A stretch of DNA of 32,000 bases from Ralstonia sp. UBA689 (GCF_002298975.1 NZ_DBMV01000024.1:133777-165776), one strand, 5' to 3'; shown: positions 1-19,057, numbered from the stretch's first letter. The notes: a model not told the origin generated them from the letters alone. Program-made: numbers and translations.

Positions 1-2
1 GA

Positions 3-1151
3 ACACGCGAGTTCTACCAGACGCGGGCCGACATCACCCGGCAACTGATCGAGCGCTGCGGTTTTGATGCGGTAGCCATCGAGGGCGACTGGCCCGACGT
101 ATGGCGAATCAACCGCTACGTTCAGGCAGAGAGCAACGATACGGCGGCCGAGTCCTTGAGCGATTTCCGGCGTTTTCCGGAATGGATGTGGCGCAACCAG
201 GAAACGCTGGACTTCATCACATGGCTGCGTGAGTACAACACGCCGTTGCCCGCGTCCGAGCGCGTTGGTGTCTATGGGCTCGATCTGTATAGCCTGTATC
301 GATCTGCCGAGGCCGTGGTCGAGTACCTGGAGAAGAACGACCCGGACCAGGCGGCCGTGGCGCGCCTGCACTATGCGGCGCTCGACCACGTGCGCGAGCC
401 GATGACGTATGGCTACGAGGCGGCTTCGGGGCTCAGATTGCCCGCCCAGCGTGAGGTGATCGAGCAACTGCGCAGGCTCAGGGCGAGCGAGACGAAGTTG
501 ATCGAGCAGGATGGCGTCGCGGCAGTGGATTCGCACTTCTTTGCCGAGCAGAACGCGATCGTCGTGGTCAATGCCGAGGCGTATTACCGTGAATCGTTCG
601 GCCGGCGCGTCAACACCTGGAACCTGCGCGACGCGCACATGGCGCAGACTTTGTTTGCCCTGGCGGCCTATCGCCGCCGGCGCGGCGGTACGGGGCGCGT
701 GGTGGTATGGGCGCACAACTCGCACCTGGGCGACGCTCGCGCAACGGAATCTGCGGGTCGGCGCGAGTGGAACCTTGGGCAACTCGTGCGGGAACAGGTG
801 CACAGCGCCGCGCTGCTCGTCGGGTTCACCACCTATACGGGCCATGTCTGCGCGGCATCGGAGTGGGGCGGCGAGCCCGAAACGAAATGGGTCAGGCCCG
901 CCCGTCCGGATAGCTGGGAACATTTGTTCCATAGCACCGGTCTGGATCGATTCTTCCTGCCACTTGGCGATGCAGCACCTGCGGTGTTTCGCGAGCCGCT
1001 GCTGGAGCGGGCGATCGGTGTTCTCTACCTGCCGAAGACCGAGTACGCCTCGCATTACTTTGAAGCCACCATCGGTGACCAGTTCGATGCGCTGTTCCAC
1101 CTGGACGAAACCTCCGCCATCGAGCCGCTGAGCGCCGCATTGCTTTCCTGA
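3..1151 (+). CDS. erythromycin esterase-family protein, 5' end outside window
   Basis: Frame 3 is open from base 3 (TREFYQTRADITRQLIERCGFDAVAIEGDWPDVWRINRYV...) and runs into track ORF 156..1151, so the TTG at 156 is internal. The sequence pattern recalls erythromycin-esterase-like proteins. Stop is TGA at 1149-1151. Confidence 0.7.
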   Translation, partial: TREFYQTRADITRQLIERCGFDAVAIEGDWPDVWRINRYVQAESNDTAAESLSDFRRFPEWMWRNQETLDFITWLREYNTPLPASERVGVYGLDLYSLYRSAEAVVEYLEKNDPDQAAVARLHYAALDHVREPMTYGYEAASGLRLPAQREVIEQLRRLRASETKLIEQDGVAAVDSHFFAEQNAIVVVNAEAYYRESFGRRVNTWNLRDAHMAQTLFALAAYRRRRGGTGRVVVWAHNSHLGDARATESAGRREWNLGQLVREQVHSAALLVGFTTYTGHVCAASEWGGEPETKWVRPARPDSWEHLFHSTGLDRFFLPLGDAAPAVFREPLLERAIGVLYLPKTEYASHYFEATIGDQFDALFHLDETSAIEPLSAALLS

Positions 1152-1167
1152 TCGTCGACGTGCAAGG

Positions 1168-1181
1168 TTGCTCCACATCAA
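1168..1181. promoter_or_regulatory. FNR/Anr-like box TTGCT-ccac-ATCAA (9/10 to TTGAT-N4-ATCAA)
   Basis: Read directly. It lies in the 94-bp gap between the stop at 1151 and the ATG at 1246, with its centre about 72 bp upstream of the ATG. Confidence 0.5.
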
Positions 1182-1245
1182 CGCCCTCCAGCACAGATGG
1201 GCCATTGTGGATAAAGGAATGCGTTGAATTCTTGAGGAGTCGATT

Positions 1246-1911
1246 ATGCCGCGCATAGGCCACCTTCTGTCCGCCGCGCTGTTCGCTACATGTCTGGCAT
1301 CCGTGGGCGTGGCGTCCGCCCAAGCGCCCGCACCGTCGCCAACGCCAGAAGCGCAACGCCAGGCGTACTCCGACTTCTGCACGCAATTGCGCAATGCGCG
1401 AACGCCGGCGGAGCGCCGTGCCCTGATGCACCGCATGCGCGACATCCGGGGCCCGAATGAAGCTGGCGGCATGCGCCGGCATATGCAAAACGGTCGACCC
1501 GGCGCAATGATGGATCGGCCGTCGTGGCGGGCCATGCGCGAGATGGGGTGCCTGGACGAGCCGGCCGGCGCTGGCGTGGTGACGCCGAAAATACAAGGCG
1601 GCGTTACCTACGTCTCGGGCGGGGTTGGGCAAGACGAGGTTGAAGCCATGCACCGCATAGCACGCGACTACAGCGTGCGTCTGACGTTCGTGGGCAAGGG
1701 TGGTGAGTATCTTTCCGACATTGACACACACATCCGCACCGCGCGCGGGGCCGCTGTGCTTGCTGTCGTGTCCGAAGGGCCGTTGCTGTATGTCCGCCTT
1801 CCGAGCGGCAGCTATCGAGTCAGCGCGTCTTACAACGGCGAGGAAAAGCAGACGACGATCACGGTGCCGGCACATGGCGCGGTGGTGCATACCATGGCTT
1901 GGCCGCACTGA
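1246..1911 (+). CDS. secreted hypothetical protein (signal peptide; C-terminal beta-rich domain)
   Basis: The ATG is preceded by GAGGAG. The N-terminus MPRIGHLLSAALFATCLASVGVASAQA looks like a Sec signal peptide. The composition is coding-like and no family is firmly recognised. Confidence 0.7.
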   Translation: MPRIGHLLSAALFATCLASVGVASAQAPAPSPTPEAQRQAYSDFCTQLRNARTPAERRALMHRMRDIRGPNEAGGMRRHMQNGRPGAMMDRPSWRAMREMGCLDEPAGAGVVTPKIQGGVTYVSGGVGQDEVEAMHRIARDYSVRLTFVGKGGEYLSDIDTHIRTARGAAVLAVVSEGPLLYVRLPSGSYRVSASYNGEEKQTTITVPAHGAVVHTMAWPH

Positions 1912-1974
1912 GTAGCCTAGTGGGCGGATGCGATGGAACACTCGCGACCGCCACGATCCCGCCAACGTGCCGCG

Positions 1975-3612
1975 CTAGGCGTAGCCGGTATCGAACATTG
2001 TTGCGTTCGTGGCGTCACCCGCCCCGTCAGCCTGCTCCTGGCGCACGTTGGCGATCATGCAATCCGTGGTCAACAACAGAGCAGCGATTGAGACGGCGTT
2101 CTGCAAGGCGGTGCGTACCACCTTGACGGGGTCGACTACGCCCAATTCGAGCATGTCGCCATAGCGGTCGGAGGCGGCGTCATAGCCATGCGACCCCGCA
2201 CCGGCCAGCACCTGATGGACGACAGCCTGTGCGTCGGCTCCCGCATTGGCAGCGATCTGCAGCATGGGGGCAGCCAGTGCGGTATGGACGATGCGGGCAC
2301 CTGCGTGCTGTTCGACGTTGGGCGCTTCCCAGGCATCGATTGCAGCCCGGGCGCGGAGTAGCGCCACCCCGCCGCCGGGCACAATGCCTTCCTCAACGGC
2401 CGCGCGCGTTGCGTGCAATGCATCCTGGAAACGGTTCTTGCGTTCGTGCAGCGCCGTCTCCGTGGCCGCGCCCACCTTGATGACGGCAACCCCGCCACTC
2501 AAGCGGGCAAGCCGGTGTTGAAGCTGCTCGCGGTCATAGTCTGTCTTGGCCTCGGCAGCCTGCCCGCGCAGCAGCGCAATACGGCGCTCGACCTCGGCTT
2601 TGGCCGTATCGCCGGCAATGAGGGTCGTCGCGTCCTTGGTGATTTCAATGCGGTGTGCCTGGCCAAGGTGTTCGAGCGTGGCGTGCTCGAGCCAAACCCC
2701 CGTTTGTGACGAGATGATGGTGCCGCCGGTCAGCGCTGCCAGATCCGCCAGTTGCTCGGTGCGGGACTCACCGAAGCCCGGCGAGCGGATGGCGCAGTTC
2801 TTGAGCGTGCCGCGCAGGTTGTTGACAACGAGCGTGGCCAGCGCTTCGCCTTCCACGTCATTGGCAATGACAAGCAACGGTTTGCCCGTGCTGGATACGG
2901 CTTCGAGCACGGGCAGCAATTGGGCAACCGAGGCAATGGTGGCGTCGCACAGCAGCACCCAAGGCGCTTCCAGGATGACAGCGCGGCTTTCGGTCGTCGC
3001 AAAAAAAGGGGAGAGATAGCCGCGATCCACGCGCGCACCCTTTGCAATCTCCAACTGGTCATCCAGCTTGGAGCCATCTTCCACGCTGATGGCGCCATCC
3101 TTGCCCACCTGTTCAACCGCTCGCGCAACCAGCGAACCGACGGTCTGGTCTCCGCTGGCTGAGATCGTGGCGATCTGCCGCATTTCGTCGACCGTGGTGC
3201 AGGGCTGCGCCATATTGCGCAACTGCTGCGCGACCACTGCCCCGGCTGCTTCGATGCCGCGTTTGAGCTGCATCGGATCATGCCCCGCTTCCACGTACTT
3301 GACGCCTTCGGACACGATGGCATGCGCCAATGTAGTGGCCGTGGTCGTGCCGTCTCCGGCTACCTCGCTGGTGCGCACGGCGGCTTCGCACAGCAGACGC
3401 GCGCCCATATCGGCAAACGGCTCGCGCAATGAGATTGCACGCGCCACTACCACCCCCGAATTGGCAATCATGGGCCCGGTGCCGGGCTGTTCGATGATCA
3501 CGTTGCGCCCGCCCGGCCCCAGTGTCACCTTGACGGCGCGGGCCAGCAGGTCGATGCCGTTGAGCATCATCCTGCGGGCGGCTTGATGAAAGACCAGGGT
3601 CTTGGCTGTCAT
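1975..3612 (-). CDS. groEL: chaperonin GroEL (Cpn60) paralog
   Basis: The translation MTAKTLVFHQAARRMMLNGIDLLARAVKVTLGPGGRNVIIEQ...EVAGDGTTTATTLAHAIV... carries the canonical GroEL N-terminus and the GDGTTTAT ATP-binding motif. The start is taken at the ATG at 3612 (MTAKTL) rather than the track start at 3651. The C-terminus lacks the GGM repeat tail. Confidence 0.9.
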   Translation of the reverse strand: MTAKTLVFHQAARRMMLNGIDLLARAVKVTLGPGGRNVIIEQPGTGPMIANSGVVVARAISLREPFADMGARLLCEAAVRTSEVAGDGTTTATTLAHAIVSEGVKYVEAGHDPMQLKRGIEAAGAVVAQQLRNMAQPCTTVDEMRQIATISASGDQTVGSLVARAVEQVGKDGAISVEDGSKLDDQLEIAKGARVDRGYLSPFFATTESRAVILEAPWVLLCDATIASVAQLLPVLEAVSSTGKPLLVIANDVEGEALATLVVNNLRGTLKNCAIRSPGFGESRTEQLADLAALTGGTIISSQTGVWLEHATLEHLGQAHRIEITKDATTLIAGDTAKAEVERRIALLRGQAAEAKTDYDREQLQHRLARLSGGVAVIKVGAATETALHERKNRFQDALHATRAAVEEGIVPGGGVALLRARAAIDAWEAPNVEQHAGARIVHTALAAPMLQIAANAGADAQAVVHQVLAGAGSHGYDAASDRYGDMLELGVVDPVKVVRTALQNAVSIAALLLTTDCMIANVRQEQADGAGDATNATMFDTGYA

Positions 3613-3703
3613 GGTTGCCTTGTCATCGGTAAGAAGCGCCGCCGCGCGCACCCAAGCACGAAACGGAAGACGGGTTGCGGGCCACTAGTTGCAGAGCGCA
3701 ACG

Positions 3704-4204
3704 CTATCGGGTCCATTGCACGTGCAGTTCGGTTTCGGCGTTGCCATAGTCGAACGTCAGATGCCCATGGAAAGCGTGATGGATTGCGTGGCCGATATCG
3801 CGGGCCAGGTGGAACCCTGTCGTCATGATTTCCGTGCCATCGGCCGTGCTCTCGACGGCCATGATGCGCTCCATCGGGTGATCTGCGCGCAACGCGGCTT
3901 CACGATGGCGGGCGAGCGTGAGTATTTCTTCTCGATGGGCCGTTTCGAAGTCGCCCGAGAGGCGGATTCGTGCCGCCGGCACGCGGTCCGCCGAGCGATG
4001 ACATGCCGAGCAAACCACCGTGTTTGCGCCGGGTGGCGGATTTCGCCACTGCCATCGGCCCTTCAGAAAAACTGCTCCGCACACCGGGCAGCAGCTTGCC
4101 GCTGGTGTCTTGTCGGGTTGCCTGTAATGCTCATGGATCGGTTCAACGACAAACGGGCTCCAGCGTGCCGGTCGAATCCGTTCGGATTGGGAACGCAATT
4201 TCAT
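3704..4204 (-). CDS. BCAM0308-family zinc-ribbon protein
   Basis: The ATG at 4204 is preceded by AGGAG. Two CxxC pairs are present (CCPVCGAVF... and VCSACHRS). The sequence MKLRSQSERIRPARWSPFVVEPIHEHYRQPDK... resembles the conserved BCAM0308 family. It lies 91 bp upstream of groEL and is co-oriented with it. Confidence 0.7.
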   Translation of the reverse strand: MKLRSQSERIRPARWSPFVVEPIHEHYRQPDKTPAASCCPVCGAVFLKGRWQWRNPPPGANTVVCSACHRSADRVPAARIRLSGDFETAHREEILTLARHREAALRADHPMERIMAVESTADGTEIMTTGFHLARDIGHAIHHAFHGHLTFDYGNAETELHVQWTR

Positions 4205-4309
4205 GTTGACTCCTGTTGATCGCAGATCTGCCGATGCGCAGCGCACGCCGGTCTGACGTGTGCGTGCGGTTGGACACTTCTTAGATTAACCAGCCCGATG
4301 CGCTACGGG

Positions 4310-4323
4310 TTGGGCTGGATCAA
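4310..4323. promoter_or_regulatory. FNR/Anr-like box TTGGG-ctgg-ATCAA (8/10)
   Basis: Read directly. It is intergenic, with its centre about 112 bp upstream of the 4204 start on the minus strand. Confidence 0.35.
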
Positions 4324-4529
4324 GCGAACCGTCGACACTCGAAAAGACGCGCTTGCGACGGCACAGCAGGCATACGTTGGCGCGGCAGGATGACGGTCAT
4401 ATCGCTTTGGCAACATCGAACCCGGCAACCTCGGCAGGGCCCAAACGGATGCCCAGCAAGGTCGCCAGAATTTTGATGGCGGTGCAGCGGGCCATGATGG
4501 GTTGGGTGTGCCGGTGTTCGGCTGTTACC

Positions 4530-5444
4530 TCATGGCACCGCGGGCTTCCAACTCTCGTCCGGGTCGTACGCCCGCAAGTGGCGTGCGATTTCGGCGGTGC
4601 GCGGGCCGAGATTCTTTTGGTAGACGACGCCGTTCTGATTGACGATGAAGGTCATCACGCCAGACGAGCCGAATTCCGCCGGAAAGGCGACCAGCGCGAA
4701 TCCACCCGTCATCCGCCCGCCCACGACATAGTCGTGTGCACCACCGGGCGCGTGCTTTCCTTGCTGGGTCAAGATATGGAAGAGATAGCCATGGAACGGA
4801 GCGCTCGTCGCCTTGCCTGCGGAGCCGTGGCTTCGGGCATTGGCTGCATCGGCAGCGGCGACGAGGGGCCCCAGAGGGCTGTCTTCTGTGCCGCCCGAGG
4901 CCTTCCAATACAGGCCATCGCGCTTGCCTTGTGAACTGGCAATGCGTTGTGCGAATTCGGGCTGTCCATCGGCGGTGCGGTGCGATGTGCCGTAGCTCAG
5001 TTGGGCTTCAACATACGCACGGCAAACGTGGATGGCATGGGCTTCGTGATGGCCGATGCGCCGATCGAGGATCTGCTTTGCGCCGGCTTTCGTATCAAAG
5101 CGCCAACGCGTTCCCTGCATTTCCAGCGGGATCGGGTAGGGCCAATCGTCTTTGCCCAGGATGATGACGGCGTGGCCGGCACCATCGTTTTCGATGCGAT
5201 GCGCCTCGTCGTACGCGGCTGCAAGTCTGCTTCGGGCGATCTGTTCTCCGATCGGGTCGCCAGAGCGGACCAGCTTTGTCCCATCGGGGCCGAACAAAGC
5301 GAGCAGGGCTTCCGTGCTGCCGCTATGCCATGCCGATGCCAATGCCTCCGCAGCCTCCTCGGGCGAGGAAAACGCTTGCTGGGTGGGCCGGTCGGCCCAC
5401 GTCGGAAGACACGTCATCAAGGCGGCCAGCGCAGCCAGACGCAT
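4530..5444 (-). CDS. DUF2950 family secreted protein
   Basis: MRLAALAALMTCLPTWA looks like a signal peptide. The C-terminal FHGYLFHILTQQGKHAPGGAHDYVVGGRMTGGFALVAFPAEFGSSGVMTFIVNQNGVVYQKNLG is the hallmark DUF2950 block. The start is taken at the ATG at 5444. Confidence 0.8.
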   Translation of the reverse strand: MRLAALAALMTCLPTWADRPTQQAFSSPEEAAEALASAWHSGSTEALLALFGPDGTKLVRSGDPIGEQIARSRLAAAYDEAHRIENDGAGHAVIILGKDDWPYPIPLEMQGTRWRFDTKAGAKQILDRRIGHHEAHAIHVCRAYVEAQLSYGTSHRTADGQPEFAQRIASSQGKRDGLYWKASGGTEDSPLGPLVAAADAANARSHGSAGKATSAPFHGYLFHILTQQGKHAPGGAHDYVVGGRMTGGFALVAFPAEFGSSGVMTFIVNQNGVVYQKNLGPRTAEIARHLRAYDPDESWKPAVP

Positions 5445-5485
5445 GACAAGACGGCGCCAGTGAAACACTTCGCAGATCTCTCGCA

Positions 5486-6706
5486 TCATCGTCTCCGATT
5501 GCCCCCAGCAGGTGCGGCGTGCGGTGCGGAAGAACCTCTGAACGCTGGCCCGCGCGGTTGCGGCGACGGGGCCGACATGCGGCTCGACTGCCCACGTTGC
5601 GCCTGGTTGCGCACGTCTGCACCGCGTCCGAACGACTCAAATGTGGGCGGGTAGCCGGGCGACTGCGCGCGTCGTGGAGGCGGGCGGACCGCAGGCGCCT
5701 GCCCCGGCGGACGTTGGGGCGGGCCTTGCGGTGCTCGGAATACCGGGCGCGCAGGTGCAACGGGGGAAGGCCGAATCACGGAGCCCGTCGGCGTGGCCGG
5801 TGACGTCGGATAACCGCGAAAGCCGCGCCGCACGTCCGGCGAGACAGCGGCGCCACCAAAGCGCCCCGCCTGCACCGGGCCGGGATACGGAACGCCATGA
5901 CGATGCCCTGGGTCATGTGCCCAGGTCCCGCTCGGGGGCGTACGGTGGTGGTCGATGTTGCCGAAGCGTCCCCGGTCAATATCGATGTGGTGGCCGCGCC
6001 AGTTGAAGTGGCTCCAGCCCCACAGCGGGATGACCGCCGAGAACCCGACCCAGCCAAAGCCGATGCCGCCGACAACCACGCCGCCCCAGATGTCGGGAAA
6101 GAAGTAGGGCGGGTAAGCCGGATACGGCCATGGCGCGTAGACGACATACGGATCGTAGACCGGAACGTAGACGAGGTCTGGGTTGGTTGGCTCGATGATG
6201 ATGGCACCGTCCTGCGTCGACACCATCGCCTCGGTTGTTGAAGCCAGTGTGCCGGCGGCTTGGGCACGGCTGCGCAGACGTTGTATCGAATCCATCACAG
6301 CGGCTTCGTCTGCGAGGAACGCGTTGCCGACGCGCTCCGTCCAGTCGAGGTTGTCGTCCATCATGTGCAGGAGCCCGGGAAACGGCACCAGCGATTTCAC
6401 GCTCGGATCCCATGGCAGCGGCGCGAGTGCATCGGCCAGTCCATTGCCGCTGAGCCCCGCGTGGCCTGGATCCTGCAACCAGCGATCAGCCTGGACCACT
6501 TCGAGCGGATACGTGGCAGCCATGAGGATCTGGGAAACAAGCGCATCCGGATACAGGGCGATGGGAGCCAGCATCTGGTCGAGCTGCTCAGCCGTCGCTT
6601 GCGGCGGATCGTTTTCAGGAAGGTCTTGCTGAGAGAACGCCGTGTTGAACATCAGCAACAAGAAAGCCAGGGCCACTGCCAGCGGCTTCATCGATCTCGC
6701 TTTCAT
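5486..6706 (-). CDS. DUF3300 domain protein (secreted, Pro-rich C-terminus)
   Basis: GGAGG lies 8 nt upstream of the ATG at 6706. MKPLAVALAFLLLMFNTAFS looks like a signal peptide. LDQMLAPIALYPDALVSQILMAATYPLEVVQADRWL is the DUF3300 signature. Confidence 0.8.
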   Translation of the reverse strand: MKARSMKPLAVALAFLLLMFNTAFSQQDLPENDPPQATAEQLDQMLAPIALYPDALVSQILMAATYPLEVVQADRWLQDPGHAGLSGNGLADALAPLPWDPSVKSLVPFPGLLHMMDDNLDWTERVGNAFLADEAAVMDSIQRLRSRAQAAGTLASTTEAMVSTQDGAIIIEPTNPDLVYVPVYDPYVVYAPWPYPAYPPYFFPDIWGGVVVGGIGFGWVGFSAVIPLWGWSHFNWRGHHIDIDRGRFGNIDHHRTPPSGTWAHDPGHRHGVPYPGPVQAGRFGGAAVSPDVRRGFRGYPTSPATPTGSVIRPSPVAPARPVFRAPQGPPQRPPGQAPAVRPPPRRAQSPGYPPTFESFGRGADVRNQAQRGQSSRMSAPSPQPRGPAFRGSSAPHAAPAGGNRRR

Positions 6707-6796
6707 TGACTGCCTCCGCAGGAAACCGGAACGGCCAGCCGTCGAACGGACGGGTTCCTCTTGCGTTCAATATTGGGGCAGCCGCTCCGACTGCGC

Positions 6797-6810
6797 TTGA
6801 TGCGCATCAA
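6797..6810. promoter_or_regulatory. perfect FNR/Anr box TTGAT-gcgc-ATCAA
   Basis: Read directly. It lies between the ftsH stop (6844) and the DUF3300 start (6706), with its centre about 98 bp upstream of that start. Confidence 0.65.
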
Positions 6811-6843
6811 CGCTGGCCAGCATCTGCCCCCGGGCCGCCGGAC

Positions 6844-8784
6844 TCAGGGGTCTCTCCGGTCACGCCCGGAGATTTCCGTGGACGATGCATTGCTGGGCCC
6901 ACCACCCGGCTTGGGGAGCGGCATGGTTGTGACCTTGTCCGACAGGATCATGTCCAGGTCTTGTCGATCGACCACCTCCTTGTCGAGGAGCAACCGAGCC
7001 AGCGCTTCGAGCTTCGCGCGCTGGCTTTCCAGCGTGGCCGTCACACGCGTGGTTGCATCGGTCAGGACGTTGCGTACCTCGGTGTCGATCAACTGGGCCG
7101 TGTGTTCGCTGTACTCCTTACGCTCTCGCTGCGGCCATCCCGTGCCGGAAAGGAGTGGGTTCGGCACGTCTTCGTACGTCGCCAGCCCGAGTTTTTCGCT
7201 CATGCCGAATTGGGTGACCATCTGGCGGGCCATGTCGGTGGCTCGTTGTAGGTCGTTCTGCGCGCCAGTCGACACGTCGCGATAGACGATCTGCTCGGCA
7301 ACGTAGCCGCCCAACAGCACGTCGAGCCGGTCGAGCAGCTCGCTGTGCTTGAGCAGGTAGCGGTCTTCCGTGGGTGTTTGCTGTGTGTAGCCGAGCGCGG
7401 CGACACCTCTGGGGATGATGGAAACCTTGGAGACGCGATCCGCCAGCGGTCGATGTTCCGCAACGATGGCATGACCCGCTTCGTGGTAGGCGATGGTCTC
7501 CTTTTCCTTGGGATTCATCACGCGGTTCTTTTTTTCGAGCCCGCCAACGATACGGTCCAGCGCTTCGTCAAAATCTGCCGTCTCGACGGCTGCTTTGCCT
7601 TTGCGGGCCGCCAGGAGCGCGGCTTCGTTGACGAGGTTGGCGAGGTCTGCCCCGGCAAAGCCTGGGGTTCGGGCGGCGATCTTGTTCAACTCCACGTCGC
7701 TTCCGAGCGTGACGTTCTTGACGTGAACCTGAAGAATCTGCTCGCGCCCCTTGAGATCCGGCCGGTCCAGCGCGATATGGCGGTCAAACCGGCCCGGGCG
7801 CAATAGCGCGGGATCCAGTGTCTCGGGGCGGTTGGTGGCCGCCATGATGATGACGCCCTTGTTGCTGTCAAAACCGTCCATCTCAACCAGAAGCTGGTTC
7901 AGGGTCTGCTCGCGCTCTTCGTTACCGCCGATCATGCTCAGCGCGCGGGTTTTGCCCAAGGCGTCGAGCTCATCGATGAAGATGATGCACGGCGCCATGG
8001 TTTCGGCCTGGCTGAACAGATCGCGCACGCGCGCGGCGCCGACGCCCACGAACATCTCGACAAAATCGGAGCCGCTCATGCTGAAGAACGGGACAGCGGC
8101 CTCACCCGCGACTGCCTTGGCCAACAGCGTCTTGCCCGTGCCGGGAGCGCCGACAATCAGCACCCCTTTGGGAATCCTGCCGCCCAGGCGCTGGTATCGC
8201 TGCGGATCCTTCAGGAAGTTGACGATTTCCGACAACTCTTCCTTGGCTTCATCGATACCGGCAACATCGGCAAAGGTCACACCGGTCTCTTTCTGCATGT
8301 AGACCTTTGCCTTGCTCTTGCCGATCCCCATCAAACCGTTGGCGGCGCCCCCCATACGCCGCATGAGGAAACTCCAGACGGCAAAGAACAGGAGCGCAGG
8401 CACCACCCACGAGAGGATGGAACTTAACCACTTGTTGTCGGGGCGACCAACGAAACGCACCTTGGCGGCTTCCAGCTCCGGGATCAGTGCCGGATCGTTC
8501 ACACGAAGTGTGGTGAAGGCACGATCAGCCTTACCTGTGCGGCGTATCTCATCGACCTGCTGCTTCGTGAGGAGCGTCTCGATGCCCTCAGTGGAAAACG
8601 TACCGGTGATGTCCTGTTCACCAATGGATACATCCTTGAGCTTGCCCGATTTCAGCAGGAGCTTGAAATCGCTGTAGGGAAGCGTCTCGAACTGGTCGGA
8701 CACGAACAGCGTCTGGACCGCGAGCATCATCAATATGACCGCGATGGCGTACCAGAGAGAAAACCTTTGCTGCTGCGGTTCCAT
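6844..8784 (-). CDS. ftsH: ATP-dependent zinc metalloprotease FtsH (paralog)
   Basis: Walker [19 protein letters not shown], the AAA second region of homology, the zinc motif HEAGHAIV, and an N-terminal TM ([20 protein letters not shown]) are present. The start is preferred at the ATG at 8784 (MEPQQQ) because the FNR box at 8880 would place a transcription start near 8845, downstream of the track start at 8850. Confidence 0.9.
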
Positions 8785-8879
8785 GCCGTCTTGTCCTCTG
8801 TCGGCGTCGCTCAATGTCGAACTGTCGTGATGAACATACAAGGCCGGCATTCATCTTCGCGCCTTCACCCGGCGGGCAG

Positions 8880-8893
8880 TTGATGCGGATCAA
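8880..8893. promoter_or_regulatory. perfect FNR/Anr box TTGAT-gcgg-ATCAA
   Basis: Read directly. It is intergenic, between the stop at 8989 and ftsH, with its centre about 102 bp upstream of the ATG at 8784. Confidence 0.65.
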
Positions 8894-8988
8894 CGGATCG
8901 GGCGGGCACCGAAGATTCAAACGATCTGACCAAGTCAATGTTGCCGCGCGGCACAAGTGCTTGATGAGAGACCCACACGCTCCATCAT

Positions 8989-9234
8989 CTATCGGCAGTG
9001 CGCGCGTGCCGGCGGAAACAGGCGCCAACAACCCGCCTGATGGCGAAAGAAGACGATGGCGAGCGGCCGCGTTGAAGTGGCCAGCTCGGCCCGCACGCAA
9101 CCACACTCGAACCCCGGACAGTGCAGGCGCGTGATCCGCAAATGCGGCGTATCGCTTGGGCCAAACCATTTGGCGATCAGCTCGCGCAGTGAAGTGCTGT
9201 CGTGGACCATCCCGGCCTCCATCGCCTTTTTCAT
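8989..9234 (-). CDS. small hypothetical protein (partner of the LRAT-like gene)
   Basis: The ATG at 9234 lies 4 nt after the LRAT-like stop (9239-9241), which suggests co-transcription. The block PLAIVFFRHQAGCWRLFPP recalls small conserved Burkholderiales proteins. The start is uncertain because of internal Met codons. Confidence 0.45.
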   Translation of the reverse strand: MKKAMEAGMVHDSTSLRELIAKWFGPSDTPHLRITRLHCPGFECGCVRAELATSTRPLAIVFFRHQAGCWRLFPPARAHCR

Positions 9235-9238
9235 GCCT

Positions 9239-9730
9239 TCATGCAGTCAGCGGCTGCGGCTGCGCAACCCTCGACAGCACGAACAGCATCAGCCTGAAAA
9301 GCGTGCGTGCAGCCTGCAACGGGCTTTTCATACAGACTTCAACCTGCGGGCTGCGGCACTCACCGAACAGACACCACGAGCAGAAGTGCTCGCAGTTGTT
9401 GCTCAGCAACCGGTAGTCGTTTTCGCCCAGGCGCGACTTGGCGCGGCGAGCAACCTCTTCGCCGTCGTACGCGGGGCAAACGTCGAGCTGGACGTACACC
9501 GAAAAACCACAGGAAAAACCGGCGATCGAGGTTCTCTGCACCGGCCCCCTGCGCTGACAACGCGAGAAACCTGCGTAGTGAATCACCTGACCGTCGCCAA
9601 CATAGATGCCGTGATGGGCATACCCTTTTCGCTCCGTCACGAGGTGTGCGCCCAGGGGCAGCGTCGAGCCGGGCGCGGCAAAACCATCCTGTCCGTGCCG
9701 TGCGGCGAGGGCCTCGATGTTTCGGCTCAT
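9239..9730 (-). CDS. LRAT / NlpC-P60 superfamily (H-box, NC-motif) protein
   Basis: AGGAG lies 7 nt upstream of the ATG at 9730. The catalytic-type motifs HHGIYVGDGQVIHY and LLSNNCEHFCSWC are typical of lecithin-retinol-acyltransferase-like papain-fold enzymes. Confidence 0.7.
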   Translation of the reverse strand: MSRNIEALAARHGQDGFAAPGSTLPLGAHLVTERKGYAHHGIYVGDGQVIHYAGFSRCQRRGPVQRTSIAGFSCGFSVYVQLDVCPAYDGEEVARRAKSRLGENDYRLLSNNCEHFCSWCLFGECRSPQVEVCMKSPLQAARTLFRLMLFVLSRVAQPQPLTA

Positions 9731-10006
9731 GGCGTGCTCCTCTCATGCTGGCCGGCCGGTGTTGTGGCGTTCCGACGGCGATGCGACCAATGCCGGCGCG
9801 GTGTGTTTGCATGCCCCCAGTATTGGCGGAGCGGGCAGGGGCGTCATGCAGGCAGCGCTGAGAATCCTGTCGGAGCCGCGGGTTTCCATGTCAGGGAAGC
9901 CTGACAGACGTTGTCGAAACCGCCGAAGGCTTCCAGGCAGTCGGGTTCCGGGGGCATTCCACGTGAGCCGCATGACACACGCGCCCAGGGTGCCGCCGTC
10001 CCCTCG

Positions 10007-10020
10007 TTGATCTGCCGCAA
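10007..10020. promoter_or_regulatory. FNR/Anr-like box TTGAT-ctgc-CGCAA (8/10)
   Basis: Read directly, with its centre about 82 bp upstream of the hsp20 ATG at 10096. Confidence 0.4.
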
Positions 10021-10095
10021 AGCGTGCCCGAGCCGCCGTGCCACGATGAATGTGTGAGCCACTCGGCCATCACGACCATTCATCAGGAGGCAGCC

Positions 10096-10518
10096 ATGAG
10101 CCAACTCAGGCGTTACGACCCGTTTGCCATTGAACCGGTGGGGGATATCTTCCAGGGACTTTTGCGCTCGTTCCGCGGCGGCATGGAGGGGGCGTTGCCG
10201 TTCAAGGTGGACGTGACGGAATCCGACTCTGCGTACAACGTCGTCGCGGAAATCCCCGGTGCAAAGAAGGAAGACATCGATGTCACCGTCGATCGCGGTA
10301 CGGTGATGATCTCGGCCAAGGTGGAGCGCCTGACCGAGAAGAAGGAAGGCGAGCGCATCATCCGCAGTGAGCGCTACAGCGGAGCGATGCAGCGCATGTT
10401 CACGCTGGATGCGGCCATCGACGAGAGCAAGGTCGATGCCTCATACAAGGACGGGCTGCTGCACGTGACGTTGCCCAAGAAAGAGGCTTCGCCGCAACAG
10501 CGCATTACCATCCGTTGA
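10096..10518 (+). CDS. Hsp20/alpha-crystallin small heat-shock protein
   Basis: AGGAGG lies upstream of the ATG at 10096. The alpha-crystallin core is present (VDVTESDSAYNVVAEIPGAKKEDIDVTVDRGTVMISAK...SYKDGLLHVTLPKK). Confidence 0.9.
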   Translation: MSQLRRYDPFAIEPVGDIFQGLLRSFRGGMEGALPFKVDVTESDSAYNVVAEIPGAKKEDIDVTVDRGTVMISAKVERLTEKKEGERIIRSERYSGAMQRMFTLDAAIDESKVDASYKDGLLHVTLPKKEASPQQRITIR

Positions 10519-10532
10519 TTGGTGGCCCACGC

Positions 10533-11891
10533 ATGCAACTCCAATTTCTCGGGGCAACCGATACGGTGACCGGGTCGAAGTATGTGCTGCAGACCCAGAA
10601 GCATCGCGTCATGGTCGATTGCGGGCTGTTTCAGGGCTACAAGTCCTTGCGGCTGCGCAACTGGGACAAGCTCGCGGTCAACCCGCACCACATTGACGCC
10701 GTGGTTCTCACCCACGCGCATATCGACCACAGCGGCTATCTGCCGCTGCTGGTCCGCAACGGGTTTCGCGGCCCCGTCTATTGCACGAAAGGCACCGCCG
10801 AGCTATGCCGCATCCTGTTGCCCGACAGCGCGCGCCTGGCCGTGGAAGATGCGCAGTACGCCAACGCGCAGGGCTTTTCTCGGCATCACCCGGCACTGCC
10901 GCTCTATGACGAGGAGGATGCCGCCAAGGCGTTGCGCAGATTGCACCCGGTGGCCTACGGGGAGCGCTTCTCCGTGGTTGACGGTGTGGAGGCGGAGTTC
11001 CACCGCGCCGGGCATATCATCGGCGCGGCCACGGCAACCTTGCTTGCGGACGGCCGGCGGATTGTCTTCTCCGGCGATCTGGGCAGGCAGGCGGACCTGG
11101 TCATGCGGCCGCCGGAACCTGTGGCGGAGGCCGATACCCTGCTGGTCGAATCTACCTATGGTGACCGGCTGCATCCGGCAGGCGATCCGCTCGACACGCT
11201 CGAACAGATCGTCCAGCGAACCATCGGTCAAGGCGGCACCTTGTTGATTCCGGCATTCGCGGTCGGGCGCACGCAGGCGCTGCTGTATTGCCTTTACAGG
11301 CTGATTCGGGAGCGCCGCATCCCGCATGTGCCAATCTATCTCGACAGTCCGATGGCCGAGCAAGCGACCGAAGTGTTTGCCCGCCATGTCGACGACCTGC
11401 ATATCGATGCGGCGGATTGCCAGGCGGCATGCGCGCTGGCGGTACCGGTGCAGAGTCCGCAGCAGTCAATGCATCTGGGCAACGACCGCACCCCCAAGAT
11501 CATCCTCGCGGCCAGCGGCATGGCCACGGGTGGCCGTGTCTTGCATCACCTCAAGAGCTTCGGCGGGGGCAAGCGCAACACCATCCTGATGTCCGGATTC
11601 CAGGCCGCAGGCACGCGCGGCGCGGCGTTGTTGGCCGGCCAGCGAGGTCTGCGCGTACATGGCCGCGACATTACCATTCGTGCCACGGTCGAGCAGATCC
11701 AGAATCTCTCCGCCCATGCAGACGCCAGCGAGCTGATGACCTGGTTGCGTGGCTTTATCCATGCCCCGCAGCAGACCTTCATCGTGCACGGCGAGCCAGC
11801 CGCCAGCGACGCGCTGCGCCAACGCATCGAGCATGAACTCCGCTGGCCGGTGCTCATGCCCGAGTATCGACAGTCCTACGCAGTGAGTTGA
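10533..11891 (+). CDS. MBL-fold metallo-hydrolase of the beta-CASP (RNA-metabolising) type
   Basis: MQLQFLGATDTVTGSKY followed by VLTHAHIDHSGYLP gives the HxHxDH motif. The length and C-terminal pattern (SAHADASELMTWL) are typical of beta-CASP. The ATG at 10533 lies 15 nt after the hsp20 stop. Confidence 0.8.
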   Translation: MQLQFLGATDTVTGSKYVLQTQKHRVMVDCGLFQGYKSLRLRNWDKLAVNPHHIDAVVLTHAHIDHSGYLPLLVRNGFRGPVYCTKGTAELCRILLPDSARLAVEDAQYANAQGFSRHHPALPLYDEEDAAKALRRLHPVAYGERFSVVDGVEAEFHRAGHIIGAATATLLADGRRIVFSGDLGRQADLVMRPPEPVAEADTLLVESTYGDRLHPAGDPLDTLEQIVQRTIGQGGTLLIPAFAVGRTQALLYCLYRLIRERRIPHVPIYLDSPMAEQATEVFARHVDDLHIDAADCQAACALAVPVQSPQQSMHLGNDRTPKIILAASGMATGGRVLHHLKSFGGGKRNTILMSGFQAAGTRGAALLAGQRGLRVHGRDITIRATVEQIQNLSAHADASELMTWLRGFIHAPQQTFIVHGEPAASDALRQRIEHELRWPVLMPEYRQSYAVS

Positions 11892-11893
11892 CC

Positions 11894-12856
11894 ATGACAC
11901 CGCAAACCGCCGTTCATGCATCACCCGACAAGGCACAAAAACGCGTGGTACTTGCCTTGCCGGGCAACCAGGCCGCAGCAGCCAGATTGGCGGTGCCGTT
12001 ATGCGCGGAGATCGGCCAAGCCGACGTGCGACGCTTTCCCGATGGCGAATCCTATGTGCGCCTGCAAACACCGGTGCGCGATGCGGAAGTCGCCATTGTC
12101 TGCACGTTGGACCGGCCGGATGAGAAGATTCTGCCGCTACTGTGGCTCGCGATTGCCGCCAGAGAGGGCGGGGCGCGTCGCGTTGGGCTGGTGGCGCCTT
12201 ACCTGGGTTACATGCGGCAGGACGGCGTCTTCCAGCCGGGAGAAATTCTCGCAGCGCAGCACTTTGCCGAACTACTGACCCGCTACTTCGACTGGCTGGT
12301 AGCCGTGGATCCGCACCTGCACCGCATTCCGGCCTTGTCGGATATCTTCGGCATTCCGGCTATCGCGGTGCTGGCGGCTCCAGCCGTGGCGGCCTGGGTA
12401 CAGGGCCATGTTGCCGATCCGCTGCTGGTAGGTCCCGACGACGAAAGCCGCCACCAGGTCGAGCACGTCGCCCGCCTGTGTGGTGCACCTTGGACTGTCC
12501 TGCATAAGACGCGCCACAACGCGTGGAACGTAGAGGTGACGGCCACCGGAACCGATCTGAGTTCCGGGCGCACGCCTGTGCTGGTGGACGACATCATCTC
12601 AACCGGCCGCACCATGATTGCGGCGGCCGAACTATTGCGCCGGGCCGGGTTGCCGCGTCCACAGTGCGTTGCGGTCCACGCCGTGTTCACGGCCGACGCG
12701 TACAGCGAGTTGACGGCAGTGGCTGCCGACGTGCTGACCTGCGACACCATCGCTCACCCATCCAACCGCATCGAGCTAACAGAACCGGTCGCTGAGGCGA
12801 TTTCCACCATGTTTGATCTACCTCTGCCCGCCATCACGCAGAACCTTGTCCGGTGA
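11894..12856 (+). CDS. ribose-phosphate diphosphokinase (Prs)-like phosphoribosyltransferase
   Basis: The PRPP-binding loop PVLVDDIISTGRTM and the N-terminal Prs-like block RFPDGESYVRL are present. The ATG at 11894 lies 3 nt after the MBL stop (11889-11891). Confidence 0.75.
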   Translation: MTPQTAVHASPDKAQKRVVLALPGNQAAAARLAVPLCAEIGQADVRRFPDGESYVRLQTPVRDAEVAIVCTLDRPDEKILPLLWLAIAAREGGARRVGLVAPYLGYMRQDGVFQPGEILAAQHFAELLTRYFDWLVAVDPHLHRIPALSDIFGIPAIAVLAAPAVAAWVQGHVADPLLVGPDDESRHQVEHVARLCGAPWTVLHKTRHNAWNVEVTATGTDLSSGRTPVLVDDIISTGRTMIAAAELLRRAGLPRPQCVAVHAVFTADAYSELTAVAADVLTCDTIAHPSNRIELTEPVAEAISTMFDLPLPAITQNLVR

Positions 12857-12872
12857 GGGCGGGGCTTCTACG

Positions 12873-12886
12873 CTGACAGGCATCAA
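12873..12886. promoter_or_regulatory. FNR/Anr-like box CTGAC-aggc-ATCAA (8/10)
   Basis: Read directly, with its centre about 66 bp upstream of the ATG at 12946. Confidence 0.3.
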
Positions 12887-12945
12887 GGCCAGGCATGAGC
12901 GTCTGGCCCCGAAGGTGGCAAGGCCCCAACTCCACGGGATGCATC

Positions 12946-13245
12946 ATGAAAGAGATCGTGTTTACGGCCGACGAGCCCATCTACTGTGCAAGTGGCCCGG
13001 TCCTGCAGTGTGGCGCCTCGGTGGACGGCAGCAGTGCCAGCTATGCCGTCACCGCGGAAGCACTTGAAGACCACTTCGGCGCCATCTCATGCCGCGCTGA
13101 AGACCTGATGGCGGCCTTTTCCAGCCATCGGAGCGACATCGAGGCCGTCGCCCGGGCCATGTTCGAGATGACAGGATCGAAACAGATCACGCTGCACAGC
13201 GGCCACTTCCGCTTCCCCCTGGACTCGCTCGTGACTCGCCCGTAA
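12946..13245 (+). CDS. DUF1488 family protein
   Basis: [46 protein letters not shown] matches the DUF1488 pattern (...VDG..V.C.I..EAL.DHFGA). The start is taken at the ATG at 12946. Confidence 0.65.
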
Positions 13246-13267
13246 TCGATATTCTGGAGTGCACGCC

Positions 13268-14842
13268 ATGCTCGTGCCGCCCGACATGACGGCAGTGCCC
13301 GATCGGCTCACATTCAAACCACTGGGCATCGACACCTGGCAGGAGCATGTCATCTACATGCATCCGGATTGCACGATCTGCCGCGCAGAAGGGTTTTCCG
13401 CACAAGCGCGGGTGGAAGTGCGCATCGGCCAGCGTGCCCTGATCGCCACCCTCAATCTCGTGGGTTCAGGCTTGCTCGACACGCATGAGATCAGCTTGTC
13501 CGCCAGCGCAGAAGAGTCGCTGATGGCGCGGCCCGGCGATATCGTGAGTGTCAACCATGCGCCGTCGCTGGAATCGCTGCGTGCCGTGCGCGCCAAAATC
13601 TACGGAGCGCACCTGGATACGCATCAACTGGCTAGCATCGTGAGCGACATTTCCGGCGAACGGTACGCTGATGTCCACATCGCGGCGTTCCTGAGTGCTT
13701 GCGCGGGCGGACGGATGAGCGTGAAGGAGACGACCGACCTCACGCAGGCCATGGTGGACTCCGGTGAGCGCCTGAAATGGGATCGGGCCGTCGTTGCCGA
13801 CAAGCACTGCGTGGGCGGACTGCCCGGCAACCGCACCAGCCCCATCGTCGTGGCCATCGCGGCTGCGGCCGGTCTGCTGCTGCCCAAGACATCGTCCCGC
13901 GCCATCACGTCACCCGCGGGCACGGCCGACACAATGGAAACGCTCACGCGCGTTGCGTTGAGCGCCAAGGAACTGCGGCACGTTGTCGATCGTGTCGGGG
14001 CTTCGCTGGCGTGGGGCGGTGCGTTGAGTCTCAGCCCGGCCGATGATGTTCTGATTCGCGTGGAACGGGCGCTGGATGTGGATAGCGACGCCCAACTGGT
14101 GGCCTCCATCCTCTCGAAGAAGATTGCTGCCGGGTCCACTCACGTCTTGATCGACGTGCCCGTTGGGCCTACAGCCAAGGTGCGTCGCCTGCAGGACTTG
14201 GAGCGCCTGCGCATGCTGCTTGAGCGCGTGGCGAAATCCTTTGGCATTCACGTCATGATCGTGCGCACCGATGGCTCTCAACCGGTGGGCCGTGGCATTG
14301 GCCCGGCGCTTGAAGCACGAGACGTCCTGGCTGTCCTGCAACGCTCGCCCACGGCACCGTTCGATTTGCGGGAGCGGTCGTTGTTGCTGGCTGGCGCGTT
14401 GCTGGAGTTTTGTGAGGCCGTGCCGCAAGGGGGTGGGCTCGATCTGGCCACCAGCGTGCTGGACAGCGGCGCTGCCTGGCGGAAGTTTCAGGAAATCTGC
14501 GAGGCGCAGGGGGGCTTGCGCGTACCTGGTGAAGCCATCTTCCGTCGCGATGTCGTGGCCGGGCAGGATGGCGTCGTCAGCGATATCGACAACCGGCATC
14601 TCGCCCGCATCGCAAAGCTGGCTGGAGCGCCGATGCGTCAAGTTGCCGGTGTGGAGATGCATGCGCGCCTGCATGACCGGGTCAGAGCAGGGCAACCGCT
14701 GTTCACGATCCATGCCCAGGCTTCGGGCGAGCTGGAGTACTCCTTTGCCTTTGCGCGGATGCATCCGGCCGTTTGCCTGGCCCCGATCGAGCGCATCGAC
14801 CCACTCGCGCCCCCGGCCTCAGTGGAGCAACCCGCACAGTGA
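13268..14842 (+). CDS. thymidine phosphorylase family protein (long, AMP-phosphorylase-like form)
   Basis: The glycosyltransferase family-3 core is present ([47 protein letters not shown]). There is an extra N-terminal region of about 90 aa before the helical domain. GGAG lies 9 nt upstream of the ATG at 13268; the track start is a GTG at 13259. Confidence 0.85.
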
Positions 14843-14898: not shown

Positions 14899-14921
14899 CA
14901 CGCAGACGCCTGTGGGCGCGT

Positions 14922-15167
14922 CTACAACAGGCGCTGCGTGCAATCCAGGCACGCACGGAACCTACACCCGCGTGACCGGCAACACATCAGTAAGTCAAGC
15001 ACCTCCCTCTTTGAAACGCCTGCCTCGAGCAGGCGTTTTTTCTTCTTCTCGATCTTCCTGTAGTAACGCCTGCGCGGCGCGTCTTGAATACCTCGGCGCA
15101 GATACCGGATGTGCCAATACAGATTCCGAATCTCCCGCGCCAACAACCTCTTGTCATCGTCGGTCAC
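14922..15167 (-). CDS. questionable small basic ORF (81 aa)
   Basis: GTG start with no clear RBS. The ORF contains the strong hairpin at 15014-15044 (translated as KKKKRLLEAGV). The N-terminal two thirds look protein-like, while the Cys/Arg-rich tail looks like read-through. Confidence 0.25.
   Translation of the reverse strand: MTDDDKRLLAREIRNLYWHIRYLRRGIQDAPRRRYYRKIEKKKKRLLEAGVSKREVLDLLMCCRSRGCRFRACLDCTQRLL
15014..15044 (+). terminator. rho-independent terminator (phage-side; follows the circular-form repressor ORF)
   Basis: AAACGCCTGC-ctcga-GCAGGCGTTT followed by TTTTCTTCTTC gives a 10-bp perfect stem and a T-run. Confidence 0.7.
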
Positions 15168-15217
15168 TCAATCCCTGCGTGCTATCGTTGCGTCGATCTA
15201 ACAGCCTAGGCTACGAA

Positions 15218-15652
15218 ATGCGCACAATCGTACCGCTCATGCTGCTGCTCGCCATCCCCACAGCAGAAGCACAAAGCATCAATCGCTGCAAAATCGGTGG
15301 AAAGGTGGTCTACACAGACCAGGCCTGCGGAACATCGCTCCAGCGACAAATCGACCCAGCCGAACCGGCACCACAACAAGTGCCGCGTCGCATGTCAGAC
15401 GCAGAACACAACAACCTTGAGATGGCCCAAGAATGGGACAGGCGGATGGCGCAGAGAGATAGAGACCTAGCAACCGAACAGGCTTCGACCAGCGCGAAAC
15501 AAAACGCAGCCGCAGCCAACTGTGCAACGCTAAGGCAGGAAAAAGAGGCAGTCCTATCGAACCTGCGACATGGCGGAACAGCTCAATGGATGAACTACTG
15601 GAACGAACGCTTTCACACGGTATCAGACGCGCTGTACCGCAACCGCTGCTGA
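15218..15652 (+). CDS. DUF4124-like secreted protein (prophage cargo)
   Basis: MRTIVPLMLLLAIPTAEAQS looks like a signal peptide, followed by CKIGGKVVYTDQAC, which is a DUF4124-type motif. The remainder is charged and coiled. The RBS is weak. Orientation is opposite to the phage structural genes. Confidence 0.6.
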   Translation: MRTIVPLMLLLAIPTAEAQSINRCKIGGKVVYTDQACGTSLQRQIDPAEPAPQQVPRRMSDAEHNNLEMAQEWDRRMAQRDRDLATEQASTSAKQNAAAANCATLRQEKEAVLSNLRHGGTAQWMNYWNERFHTVSDALYRNRC

Positions 15653-15835
15653 AAAGCGGGCTTGCAAGAGAGGGGGTGTTTGCCTGTGGCGCAGGATGGA
15701 CAACTTGGTGGTCATACCCGCTGCTCGGTCCCGCGGGGCGCCCTCCGGGCGTCAACCGTCCTGCACCTGGTCAACTCTCCATGTCCCCAAAGGGGCCCCC
15801 TTGCGGCTCCGATCAGAGCGCGGACACTCCCTACG

Positions 15836-16036
15836 CTAGTCGTCGCACGCCTTCACAACAAATGCGCACACGTTAGCAATGACTAAACCACCGACAAAAA
15901 CCCACCAGTTCTCAATTCGAAGATTCGTGCCATAAAACACAGCCCAAACAAGCGCCGCTTGACCAACCAAAATCGCAACCACAGCAAGCAAATATTTCAC
16001 AGCACCCTCACTAGTCACAAAAGCGCGGACACTCAC
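15836..16036 (-). CDS. small two-TM membrane protein downstream of zot
   Basis: GTG start 21 nt after the zot stop. There are two clear hydrophobic spans (YLLAVVAILVGQAALVWAVFYG and WWVFVGGLVIANVCAFVV). The composition is unlike the Arg/Pro-rich spurious ORFs of this window. Confidence 0.45.
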   Translation of the reverse strand: MSVRAFVTSEGAVKYLLAVVAILVGQAALVWAVFYGTNLRIENWWVFVGGLVIANVCAFVVKACDD

Positions 16037-16057
16037 ACTTTTCTCAGTAACGAAAAT

Positions 16058-17209: not shown

Positions 17210-17216
17210 GTCGGCC

Positions 17217-17537
17217 TCACTTCTGAACCATCTTGCGAATCGAGCCACCGCTCAAACCGGACAACGATGCGCGAATGCCCAACGTCGTGAGAATCATGTT
17301 CATCGAGGTGCCCACCTTCAGCACGCCGAGGATGCCCACCACACTCACAGACGAGATCGAGCCAACACCGTTCACGTACTGCATGAAGAGCGTCTTCATG
17401 CCACTCATCATTGCATCGACCCCCGTGAACATCACGAAGCCGATACCGAGCGCAACCAGGACACGCCCGACCAACGACACGCAGGCCTGCGCCAACAAAC
17501 CAACAATGGCCGAAGCCAACAGAGCAGCGAAAGGCAT
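17217..17537 (-). CDS. pVI-like minor coat/membrane protein (DUF2523-like)
   Basis: MPFAALLASAIVGLLAQACVSLVGRVLVALGIGFVMFTGV is strongly hydrophobic. The ATG overlaps the pIII-like stop (TGATG at 17535-17539). The position between g3 and zot is typical. Confidence 0.65.
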   Translation of the reverse strand: MPFAALLASAIVGLLAQACVSLVGRVLVALGIGFVMFTGVDAMMSGMKTLFMQYVNGVGSISSVSVVGILGVLKVGTSMNMILTTLGIRASLSGLSGGSIRKMVQK

Positions 17538-18949: not shown

Positions 18950-18961
18950 AGCTCACCACCC

Positions 18962-19021: not shown

Positions 19022-19031
19022 GACGAGCTCC

Positions 19032-19057
19032 AATAAAAACGGGGACCGAAGTCCCCG
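19032..19057 (-). terminator. rho-independent terminator/attenuator after the major coat gene
   Basis: The minus strand reads CGGGGAC-TTCG-GTCCCCG followed by TTTTTATTG. It is preceded by a second hairpin, GGCACG-N5-CGTGCC, at 19068-19084. Confidence 0.75.

Follow-up and report, generated by a model that had tools for sequence, protein, structure and literature searches.

Putative class II FNR/Anr-type promoters in an lxa-like gene block of Ralstonia sp. UBA689

The window analyzed here is a 32-kb stretch of DNA from Ralstonia sp. UBA689 (NZ_DBMV01000024.1:133777-165776, 32,000 nucleotides (nt)). Its left 14.8 kb carries a block of genes for chaperone, protease, RNase and nucleotide-metabolism proteins, which is followed by a filamentous prophage. 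Five transcription units of this block are preceded by palindromes of the FNR/Anr type, and both the palindromes and several of the genes recall the lxa locus of Burkholderia cenocepacia.

Gene content and FNR/Anr-type boxes of the left block

The genes of the block are listed below. The identities that the initial annotation gave to the operons were confirmed by Pfam and NCBIfam, and independent gene calls on an identical public contig concur with the list, among others for FtsH (646 aa) and the LRAT gene.

156-1151, plus strand: erythromycin-esterase-like gene, cut by the window edge
1246-1911, plus strand: signal-peptide (secreted) protein
1975-3651, minus strand: GroEL paralogue, no groES (TIGR02348, 664 bits, full-length)
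3704-4204, minus strand: lxa_BCAM0308 equivalog (NF040826, 160.9 bits, cutoff 100)
4530-5489, minus strand: DUF2950
5486-6706, minus strand: DUF3300
6844-8784, minus strand: FtsH paralogue
Ending at 8989, minus strand: small open reading frame (ORF) after the LRAT gene
9239-9730, minus strand: LRAT family (Pfam PF04970)
10096-10518, plus strand: Hsp20
10515-11891, plus strand: beta-CASP MBL RNase
11888-12856, plus strand: phosphoribosyl pyrophosphate (PRPP) synthetase (prs)
12946-13245, plus strand: DUF1488
13259-14842, plus strand: AMP/thymidine-phosphorylase-like gene

The window was searched for the pattern TTGAT-N4-ATCAA, in which 10 positions are scored. The six sites described previously were all recovered with the claimed numbers of mismatches (none at 6797-6810 and 8880-8893, one at 1168-1181, and two each at 4310-4323, 10007-10020 and 12873-12886).

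1168-1181, plus strand: FNR/Anr-type box TTGCTCCACATCAA, 9/10 positions, putative promoter of the signal-peptide protein gene (1246-1911)
4310-4323, minus strand: FNR/Anr-type box, minus-strand reading TTGATCCAGCCCAA, 8/10, putative promoter of the lxa_BCAM0308-family gene (4204-3704) and the groEL paralogue (3651-1975)
6797-6810, minus strand: perfect FNR/Anr box TTGATGCGCATCAA, 0 mismatches, putative promoter of DUF3300 (6706-5486) and DUF2950 (5489-4530)
8880-8893, minus strand: perfect FNR/Anr box TTGATGCGGATCAA, minus-strand reading TTGATCCGCATCAA, 0 mismatches, putative promoter of the FtsH paralogue (8784-6844)
10007-10020, plus strand: FNR/Anr-type box TTGATCTGCCGCAA, 8/10, putative promoter of hsp20, the beta-CASP MBL RNase gene and prs
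12873-12886, plus strand: 8/10 match CTGACAGGCATCAA, considered coincidental and outside the regulon signal

Perfect sites are rare by chance, as had been proposed, with two observed versus 0.03 expected from dinucleotide shuffles of the whole window. When up to two mismatches are allowed, the whole window contains 15 sites versus 7.07 expected. The excess is larger in the intergenic DNA of positions 1-14842 (1,579 nt), where six such sites are present versus 0.36 expected under a first-order Markov model trained on that same DNA; in 3,000 simulations, the count always stayed below six. The six sites are intergenic, and their centers precede the start codons at 1246, 4204, 6706, 8784, 10096 and 12946 by 66.5-112.5 nt.

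The two perfect sites and three of those with one or two mismatches keep the core TTG-N8-CAA, whereas the 12873 site begins with CTG and lacks it. Positions 4-5 of the box are variable. The first base is T, not the G of CRP-type sites, which corresponds to a TTG core rather than GTGA. The prophage and the right-hand part of the window contain four sites with two or fewer mismatches, each of which lacks one of the TTG and CAA cores; the earlier observation that comparable sites are missing from the prophage and from the right-hand 10 kb is consistent with this result.

Conservation and spacing of the putative promoters

The loci compared with the window were those of six GTDB Ralstonia species (L001-L006), R. 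wenshanensis (L081) and Ralstonia sp. RRA.1 (L084). The nearest FtsH loci belong to Ralstonia species (85-86% amino-acid identity), followed by those of Cupriavidus and Pandoraea (76-77%), and nucleotide identity to the megaplasmids of R. wenshanensis and Ralstonia sp. RRA.1 is approximately 80%. All eight compared loci are syntenic for ftsH, LRAT, hsp20, MBL, prs, DUF1488 and the phosphorylase gene, and some of them also for the BCAM0308-like gene and DUF3300-DUF2950.

The boxes of the BCAM0308-like gene, DUF3300, ftsH and hsp20 are found at orthologous positions in all of the relatives that carry the gene. In the four alignments (4-9 sequences each), 10-14 of the 14 box columns are invariant, versus 13-32% of the other intergenic columns; for the three of them that contain 7-9 sequences, the values are 13-14 of 14 versus 13-22%. 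The ftsH box is perfect in all nine Ralstonia sequences compared, and the hsp20 box is identical in nine of nine, with every one of its 14 columns invariant. The box at 4310, before the BCAM0308-family gene, has 13 of 14 columns invariant across seven Ralstonia loci. The DUF3300 box is perfect in L006 and reads TTGACGCTCATCAA in R. wenshanensis and TTGACGCCCGTCAA in L002. Additionally, R. wenshanensis retains the secreted-protein box, there reading TTGCGCCATATCAA, at the same place and with the same CATTGT hexamer.

A -10-like hexamer of the form nAnnnT lies exactly 21 nt gene-ward of the box at five of the six window sites and at all 12 of the R. wenshanensis promoters described below, whereas no other box-hexamer offset between 12 and 32 nt scores above 2. 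The hexamers and the predicted transcription starts in the window are as follows.

1203-1208, plus strand: CATTGT, 21 nt after the box; predicted start ~1215
4283-4288, minus strand: TAATCT, 21 nt after the box; predicted start ~4276; TACTCT, TATTCT and TAAGCT in orthologues
6770-6775, minus strand: CAATAT, 21 nt after the box; invariant in four loci; predicted start ~6763
8853-8858, minus strand: GAAGAT, 21 nt after the box; predicted start ~8846
10042-10047, plus strand: CACGAT, 21 nt after the box; invariant in nine loci; predicted start ~10054

In these five promoters, 4-6 of the six hexamer columns are invariant among relatives. When both strands of the 32 kb were scanned for the composite TTG-N8-CAA-N21-nAnnnT, only the five places matched, versus a mean of 0.54 and a maximum of 3 in 200 simulations. 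A scan for sigma-70 promoters and terminators revealed no canonical -35/-10 pair in these intergenic regions. The ATG at 8850 coincides with the predicted transcription start at ~8846, and ftsH therefore begins at 8784 rather than 8850.

With the start taken 7 nt after the hexamer, the box center would lie at -40.5, and the range suggested by the hexamers is -40.5 to -41.5, which agrees with the previously predicted distance of about 41.5 nt between box center and start. At class II FNR/Anr-dependent promoters, the box is centered near -41.5, over the -35 position. The five sites at 1168, 4310, 6797, 8880 and 10007 are well supported as putative promoter elements of this class II geometry. They resemble the class II promoters of FNR in E. 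coli and Anr in P. aeruginosa in the palindrome, the missing -35 and the fixed -10 distance; they differ in a strict spacer of 21 nt versus the textbook 22 and in their weak nAnnnT hexamers. In Herbaspirillum, another member of the Burkholderiales, the Fnr site of the fnr1 promoter is centered at -42 relative to a mapped start (PMC5934665).

The sixth site behaves differently. The initial annotation placed boxes before six of seven transcription units, including DUF1488-phosphorylase; however, the 12873 site is unconserved and has no nAnnnT at +21, which reduces the count to five of six units. The match lies inside a window-specific indel of ~36 nt, and the box is absent from L001-L006, L081 and L084. 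The gap between prs and DUF1488 is ~30 nt without a box in L001-L005 and L081, and L006 and L084 are also boxless. The hsp20 unit probably runs on through DUF1488 and the phosphorylase gene to 14842, and DUF1488-phosphorylase is probably without an FNR-type promoter of its own. Beside the 12873 match, a hairpin GGCCAG-N10-CTGGCC (12887-12908) is present between prs and DUF1488, whereas the 30-57-nt gap of the relatives contains no hairpin; it may represent a small repeat that was inserted there, or may serve the operon in RNA processing or attenuation.

The LRAT-like unit had been described as lacking a box, and the composite scan indeed finds nothing upstream of LRAT. A bidirectional function of the hsp20 box, serving LRAT as well, was considered and rejected: toward LRAT, no -10-like hexamer is present at 21 nt, and over 280 nt separate the box from the LRAT start. 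Absent from the earlier list is a 9/10 match, TGGATACGCATCAA, within the phosphorylase ORF at 13614-13627. This match is identical in Ralstonia sp. RRA.1 and drifts at synonymous positions in L006 and L005. As a candidate internal promoter it was discarded as a chance match in view of this synonymous drift in orthologues and of the lack of a -10 hexamer on either side.

Relation to the lxa locus and neighboring features

In B. cenocepacia J2315, the lxa (low-oxygen-activated) locus comprises 50 genes that low oxygen induces 2- to 240-fold (Sass et al. 2013, PMC3721108), among them the Zn protease BCAM0309, which is induced 130-fold (PMC3721108). An inverted repeat, the "lxa motif", which has TGA-N6-TCA in common with Anr/Fnr boxes, occurs at 17 intergenic points of the locus, and Anr-like regulators were proposed to control it (Sass et al., PMC3721108). 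The low-oxygen induction and a contribution to anoxic survival have been shown only for B. cenocepacia strains J2315/K56-2 (PMC3721108), and the Anr paralogues of B. cenocepacia H111 are essential for anoxic survival (PMC9104464).

The block in the window shares with this locus the lxa_BCAM0308 family, an FtsH paralogue (BCAM0309), LRAT, a beta-CASP/MBL RNase (BCAM0300) and Hsp20, in addition to the same Anr/Fnr-like inverted repeat before most units (five of six in the window) and a position on a secondary replicon beside mobile DNA. The corresponding island of R. wenshanensis adds pfkB, phbB, nitroreductase and polysaccharide deacetylase genes to the shared set. The differences are the genus and the gene order; furthermore, the window lacks universal stress protein genes, polyhydroxyalkanoate genes, a class II ribonucleotide reductase gene and a CRP/FNR regulator gene, whereas it contains the groES-less groEL paralogue, DUF3300-DUF2950, prs and the AMP/thymidine-phosphorylase-like gene. 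In Burkholderia sp. FXe9, the lxa layout is BON-BCAM0308-ftsH, ribonucleotide reductase II, pfkB, LRAT, MBL and alcohol dehydrogenase, with BCAM0308 and ftsH adjacent, and the boxes recur in this locus, for the most part at an identical spacing. In the window, the FtsH_fam paralogue lies 2.6 kb from the lxa_BCAM0308 equivalog gene.

In the literature searched, no description of an lxa-type island in Ralstonia was found. The prediction of FNR sites in the Ralstonia solanacearum complex has been confined to denitrification genes (bioRxiv 10.1101/2022.11.09.515861).

The syntenic island on p56D2 of R. wenshanensis (CP076412.1, positions 1-33000) is larger than that in the window. It contains 14 intergenic boxes, and its 12 box promoters precede HPF/RaiA, polX, rhomboid, two hypothetical, groL, secreted-protein, second Hsp20, BCAM0308-like, DUF3300, ftsH and hsp20 genes. 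Its additional genes encode two HPF/RaiA proteins, a second Hsp20, PolX, PhbB, a nitroreductase, PfkB and a polysaccharide deacetylase/glycoside hydrolase, and a response regulator and a MASE4 sensor kinase are also encoded inside it. The island presents a DosR-regulon-like gene set under FNR-type promoters.

Among the individual genes, the groEL paralogue of the window is situated 52 nt downstream of the lxa_BCAM0308-family gene, with no groES adjoining, and probably shares the FNR-type promoter of that gene; the groL of R. wenshanensis has its own copy of the box TTGATCCAGCCCAA with a TAACCT hexamer. The BCAM0308-family protein has a weak Pfam match to NMD3, a ribosome-export adaptor, in the zinc-ribbon region (E = 2e-6, 27.9 bits). 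This match and the HPF/RaiA genes of the related islands hint at a ribosome-related role for the family. A plus-strand ORF at 9056-9904 (282 aa) was rejected as a shadow of the minus-strand LRAT gene, and Rfam and tRNA scans found no known RNA families or tRNAs in the window.

At the island's edge, a filamentous (Inoviridae-like) prophage begins immediately downstream of the phosphorylase gene, extends over about 14900-22300 and has a GC content that falls to 55-60%. It is related to Ralstonia phage p12J, with ~84% identity over 35% of the query, and contains the following gene. No tRNA is present at the island-prophage junction.

20338-21594, minus strand: Rep_trans gene

Proposed control, alternative explanations and implications

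Taken together, the gene content, the boxes and their spacing make it very probable that the left 14.8 kb represents the Ralstonia-type counterpart of the Burkholderia lxa stress/persistence island, with five units under predicted class II activator-dependent promoters. A dimer of the CRP/FNR family (FNR, Anr or FixK type) would bind the TTGAT-N4-ATCAA-like palindrome centered ~40.5-41.5 nt before the start. The bound regulator would stand in for the missing -35 and recruit RNA polymerase to the weak nAnnnT hexamer 21 nt downstream, and in its active state, most likely under oxygen limitation, it may switch on the whole block at once. Homology to B. cenocepacia suggests oxygen as the most likely signal, and the binding protein and the exact transcription starts named here are predictions from sequence. 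In the initial annotation, the whole block was assigned to one oxygen-responsive CRP/FNR regulon. The part concerning CRP/FNR-family boxes stands at five sites, as supported by the conserved footprints, the 21-nt spacing and the lxa homology, and the sixth box does not.

Several points weigh against this interpretation. Three of the five boxes reach only 8-9 of the 10 consensus positions, and the 21-nt spacer puts the box center at -40.5, one base off the textbook -41.5. A six-frame search with a regular expression for the ETxSR recognition helix revealed no credible CRP/FNR-family gene in the window, in loci L001-L025 or in L081; with no such gene in the window or the fetched flanks, the regulator would therefore be unlinked. 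Even in B. cenocepacia, the idea that FixK or Anr binds the lxa motif has so far the status of a proposal (2025 review, PMC12071387).

The alternative that deserves most attention retains the same promoters but replaces the activator by one that does not sense oxygen directly, namely a FixK acting behind a FixLJ-like heme kinase or a nitric oxide (NO)-responsive paralogue of the Dnr/NnrR type. The island would then answer FixLJ signaling or nitrosative stress and not the state of an oxygen-labile [4Fe-4S] cluster. In the FixLJ-FixK system of Burkholderia dolosa and B. cenocepacia, it is the heme kinase and not the DNA-binding protein that senses oxygen, and a review proposes that the lxa motif of Burkholderia is bound by FixK, an Anr homologue with 43% identity (PMC12071387). 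The R. solanacearum complex has one FNR and two FNR-like regulators, so that several paralogues are available in Ralstonia (bioRxiv 10.1101/2022.11.09.515861), and the TTG-N8-CAA core with its variable positions 4-5 suits a FixK-type TTGA-N6-TCAA site equally well. Anr, Dnr and FixK boxes are alike at this resolution and would suit FNR/Anr-, FixK- and Dnr-type regulators equally; FixK and Dnr gain no edge over FNR/Anr from the sequence. A FixK would also give the same outcome, low-oxygen induction, and an NO sensor fits poorly with a block that contains no denitrification or NO-detoxification genes. Substitution of this kind is a real possibility, though we do not favor it.

The remaining two alternatives are much less probable. 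A DosR-like two-component system as the main control, with the palindromes secondary or serving as repressor or CRP (cyclic AMP) sites, is suggested by the NarL-type response regulator and MASE4 kinase within the syntenic R. wenshanensis island and by a gene content like that of the mycobacterial DosR regulon, as Sass et al. remark (PMC3721108). The DosR (DevR) regulon of M. tuberculosis is indeed an analogue, with hypoxia-induced alpha-crystallin, nitroreductase, pfkB and nucleotide-metabolism genes for non-replicating persistence; however, the NarL-type response regulator family and its DNA motif are unrelated. The window contains no two-component genes of the DosR type, and no DosR-type 20-bp palindrome was seen. 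Moreover, the core of the boxes is TTG, as in FNR-type sites, rather than the GTGA of CRP-type sites, and their location is that of a class II activator, whereas a repressor site would cover the start or the -10 hexamer. All this makes the explanation very unlikely. That the boxes are short AT-rich palindromes that arose by chance in intergenic DNA, with no regulatory role, has a semblance of support in the frequency of two-mismatch sites (7 expected per 32 kb) and in the 12873 and 13614 sites, which do act like chance matches. It is at odds with the six sites observed versus 0.36 expected in intergenic DNA, the five composite matches versus 0.54, the near-invariant boxes in 4-9 diverged loci and the fixed spacing; chance is refuted for the five sites and negligible as a general explanation.

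The preferred lxa-like, FNR-family-controlled island has a further parallel in Herbaspirillum seropedicae, whose Fnr1 and Fnr3 recognize boxes of this type, validated by chromatin immunoprecipitation sequencing within the Burkholderiales, including the class II site at -42 (PMC5934665). This organism also has multiple Fnr paralogues, with stress proteins among their targets (Batista et al. 2018, Nucleic Acids Research, PMC5934665). Its targets are mainly respiratory-chain genes and universal stress proteins, whereas an lxa-type island of chaperone, protease and RNase genes is not among them (PMC5934665).

Boxes of the same geometry were seen around FtsH-paralogue loci of Ralstonia, Cupriavidus and Pandoraea. 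Across 35 promoters with a box, 21 nt and a hexamer (Ralstonia, Cupriavidus, Pandoraea and Burkholderia), C stands immediately 5' to the hexamer in 24 and G immediately 3' to it in 22, which gives the context C-nAnnnT-G (binomial p = 5e-6 for C and 1e-4 for G, uncorrected and from promoters that are not all independent). In E. coli, C at -13 is a mark of sigma-S preference. A weak hexamer combined with a C at -13 hints that these promoters may need both a stationary-phase (RpoS-type) sigma factor and an FNR-family activator. A more speculative and rather doubtful extension is that the lxa-type island is not peculiar to the Burkholderia cepacia complex but a mobile "hibernation" module across the Burkholderiaceae, in which the C-nAnnnT-G promoters, of unusually rigid design, act as an FNR-family and RpoS-type AND gate for hypoxia plus growth arrest. 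If true, this gate would govern a proteostasis and RNA-turnover set consisting of the GroES-less GroEL, FtsH, Hsp20, the beta-CASP RNase, HPF and PRPP/nucleoside salvage.

The result is largely expected, in that the motif was already reported for lxa by Sass et al. 2013, and it reveals no new kind of regulation; the strict 21-nt spacer and the C-nAnnnT-G context are modest additions. The analysis provides base-level models (box, -10 hexamer and predicted start) for five operons, including those of the poorly understood BCAM0308 family, DUF3300/DUF2950, the groES-less GroEL and the FtsH paralogue, and mends two points of annotation, the ftsH start and the probable lack of a separate FNR-type promoter for DUF1488-phosphorylase. 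On this reading, the lxa regulon concept, known from the Burkholderia cepacia complex, would also take in Ralstonia, a genus with opportunistic as well as plant pathogens.

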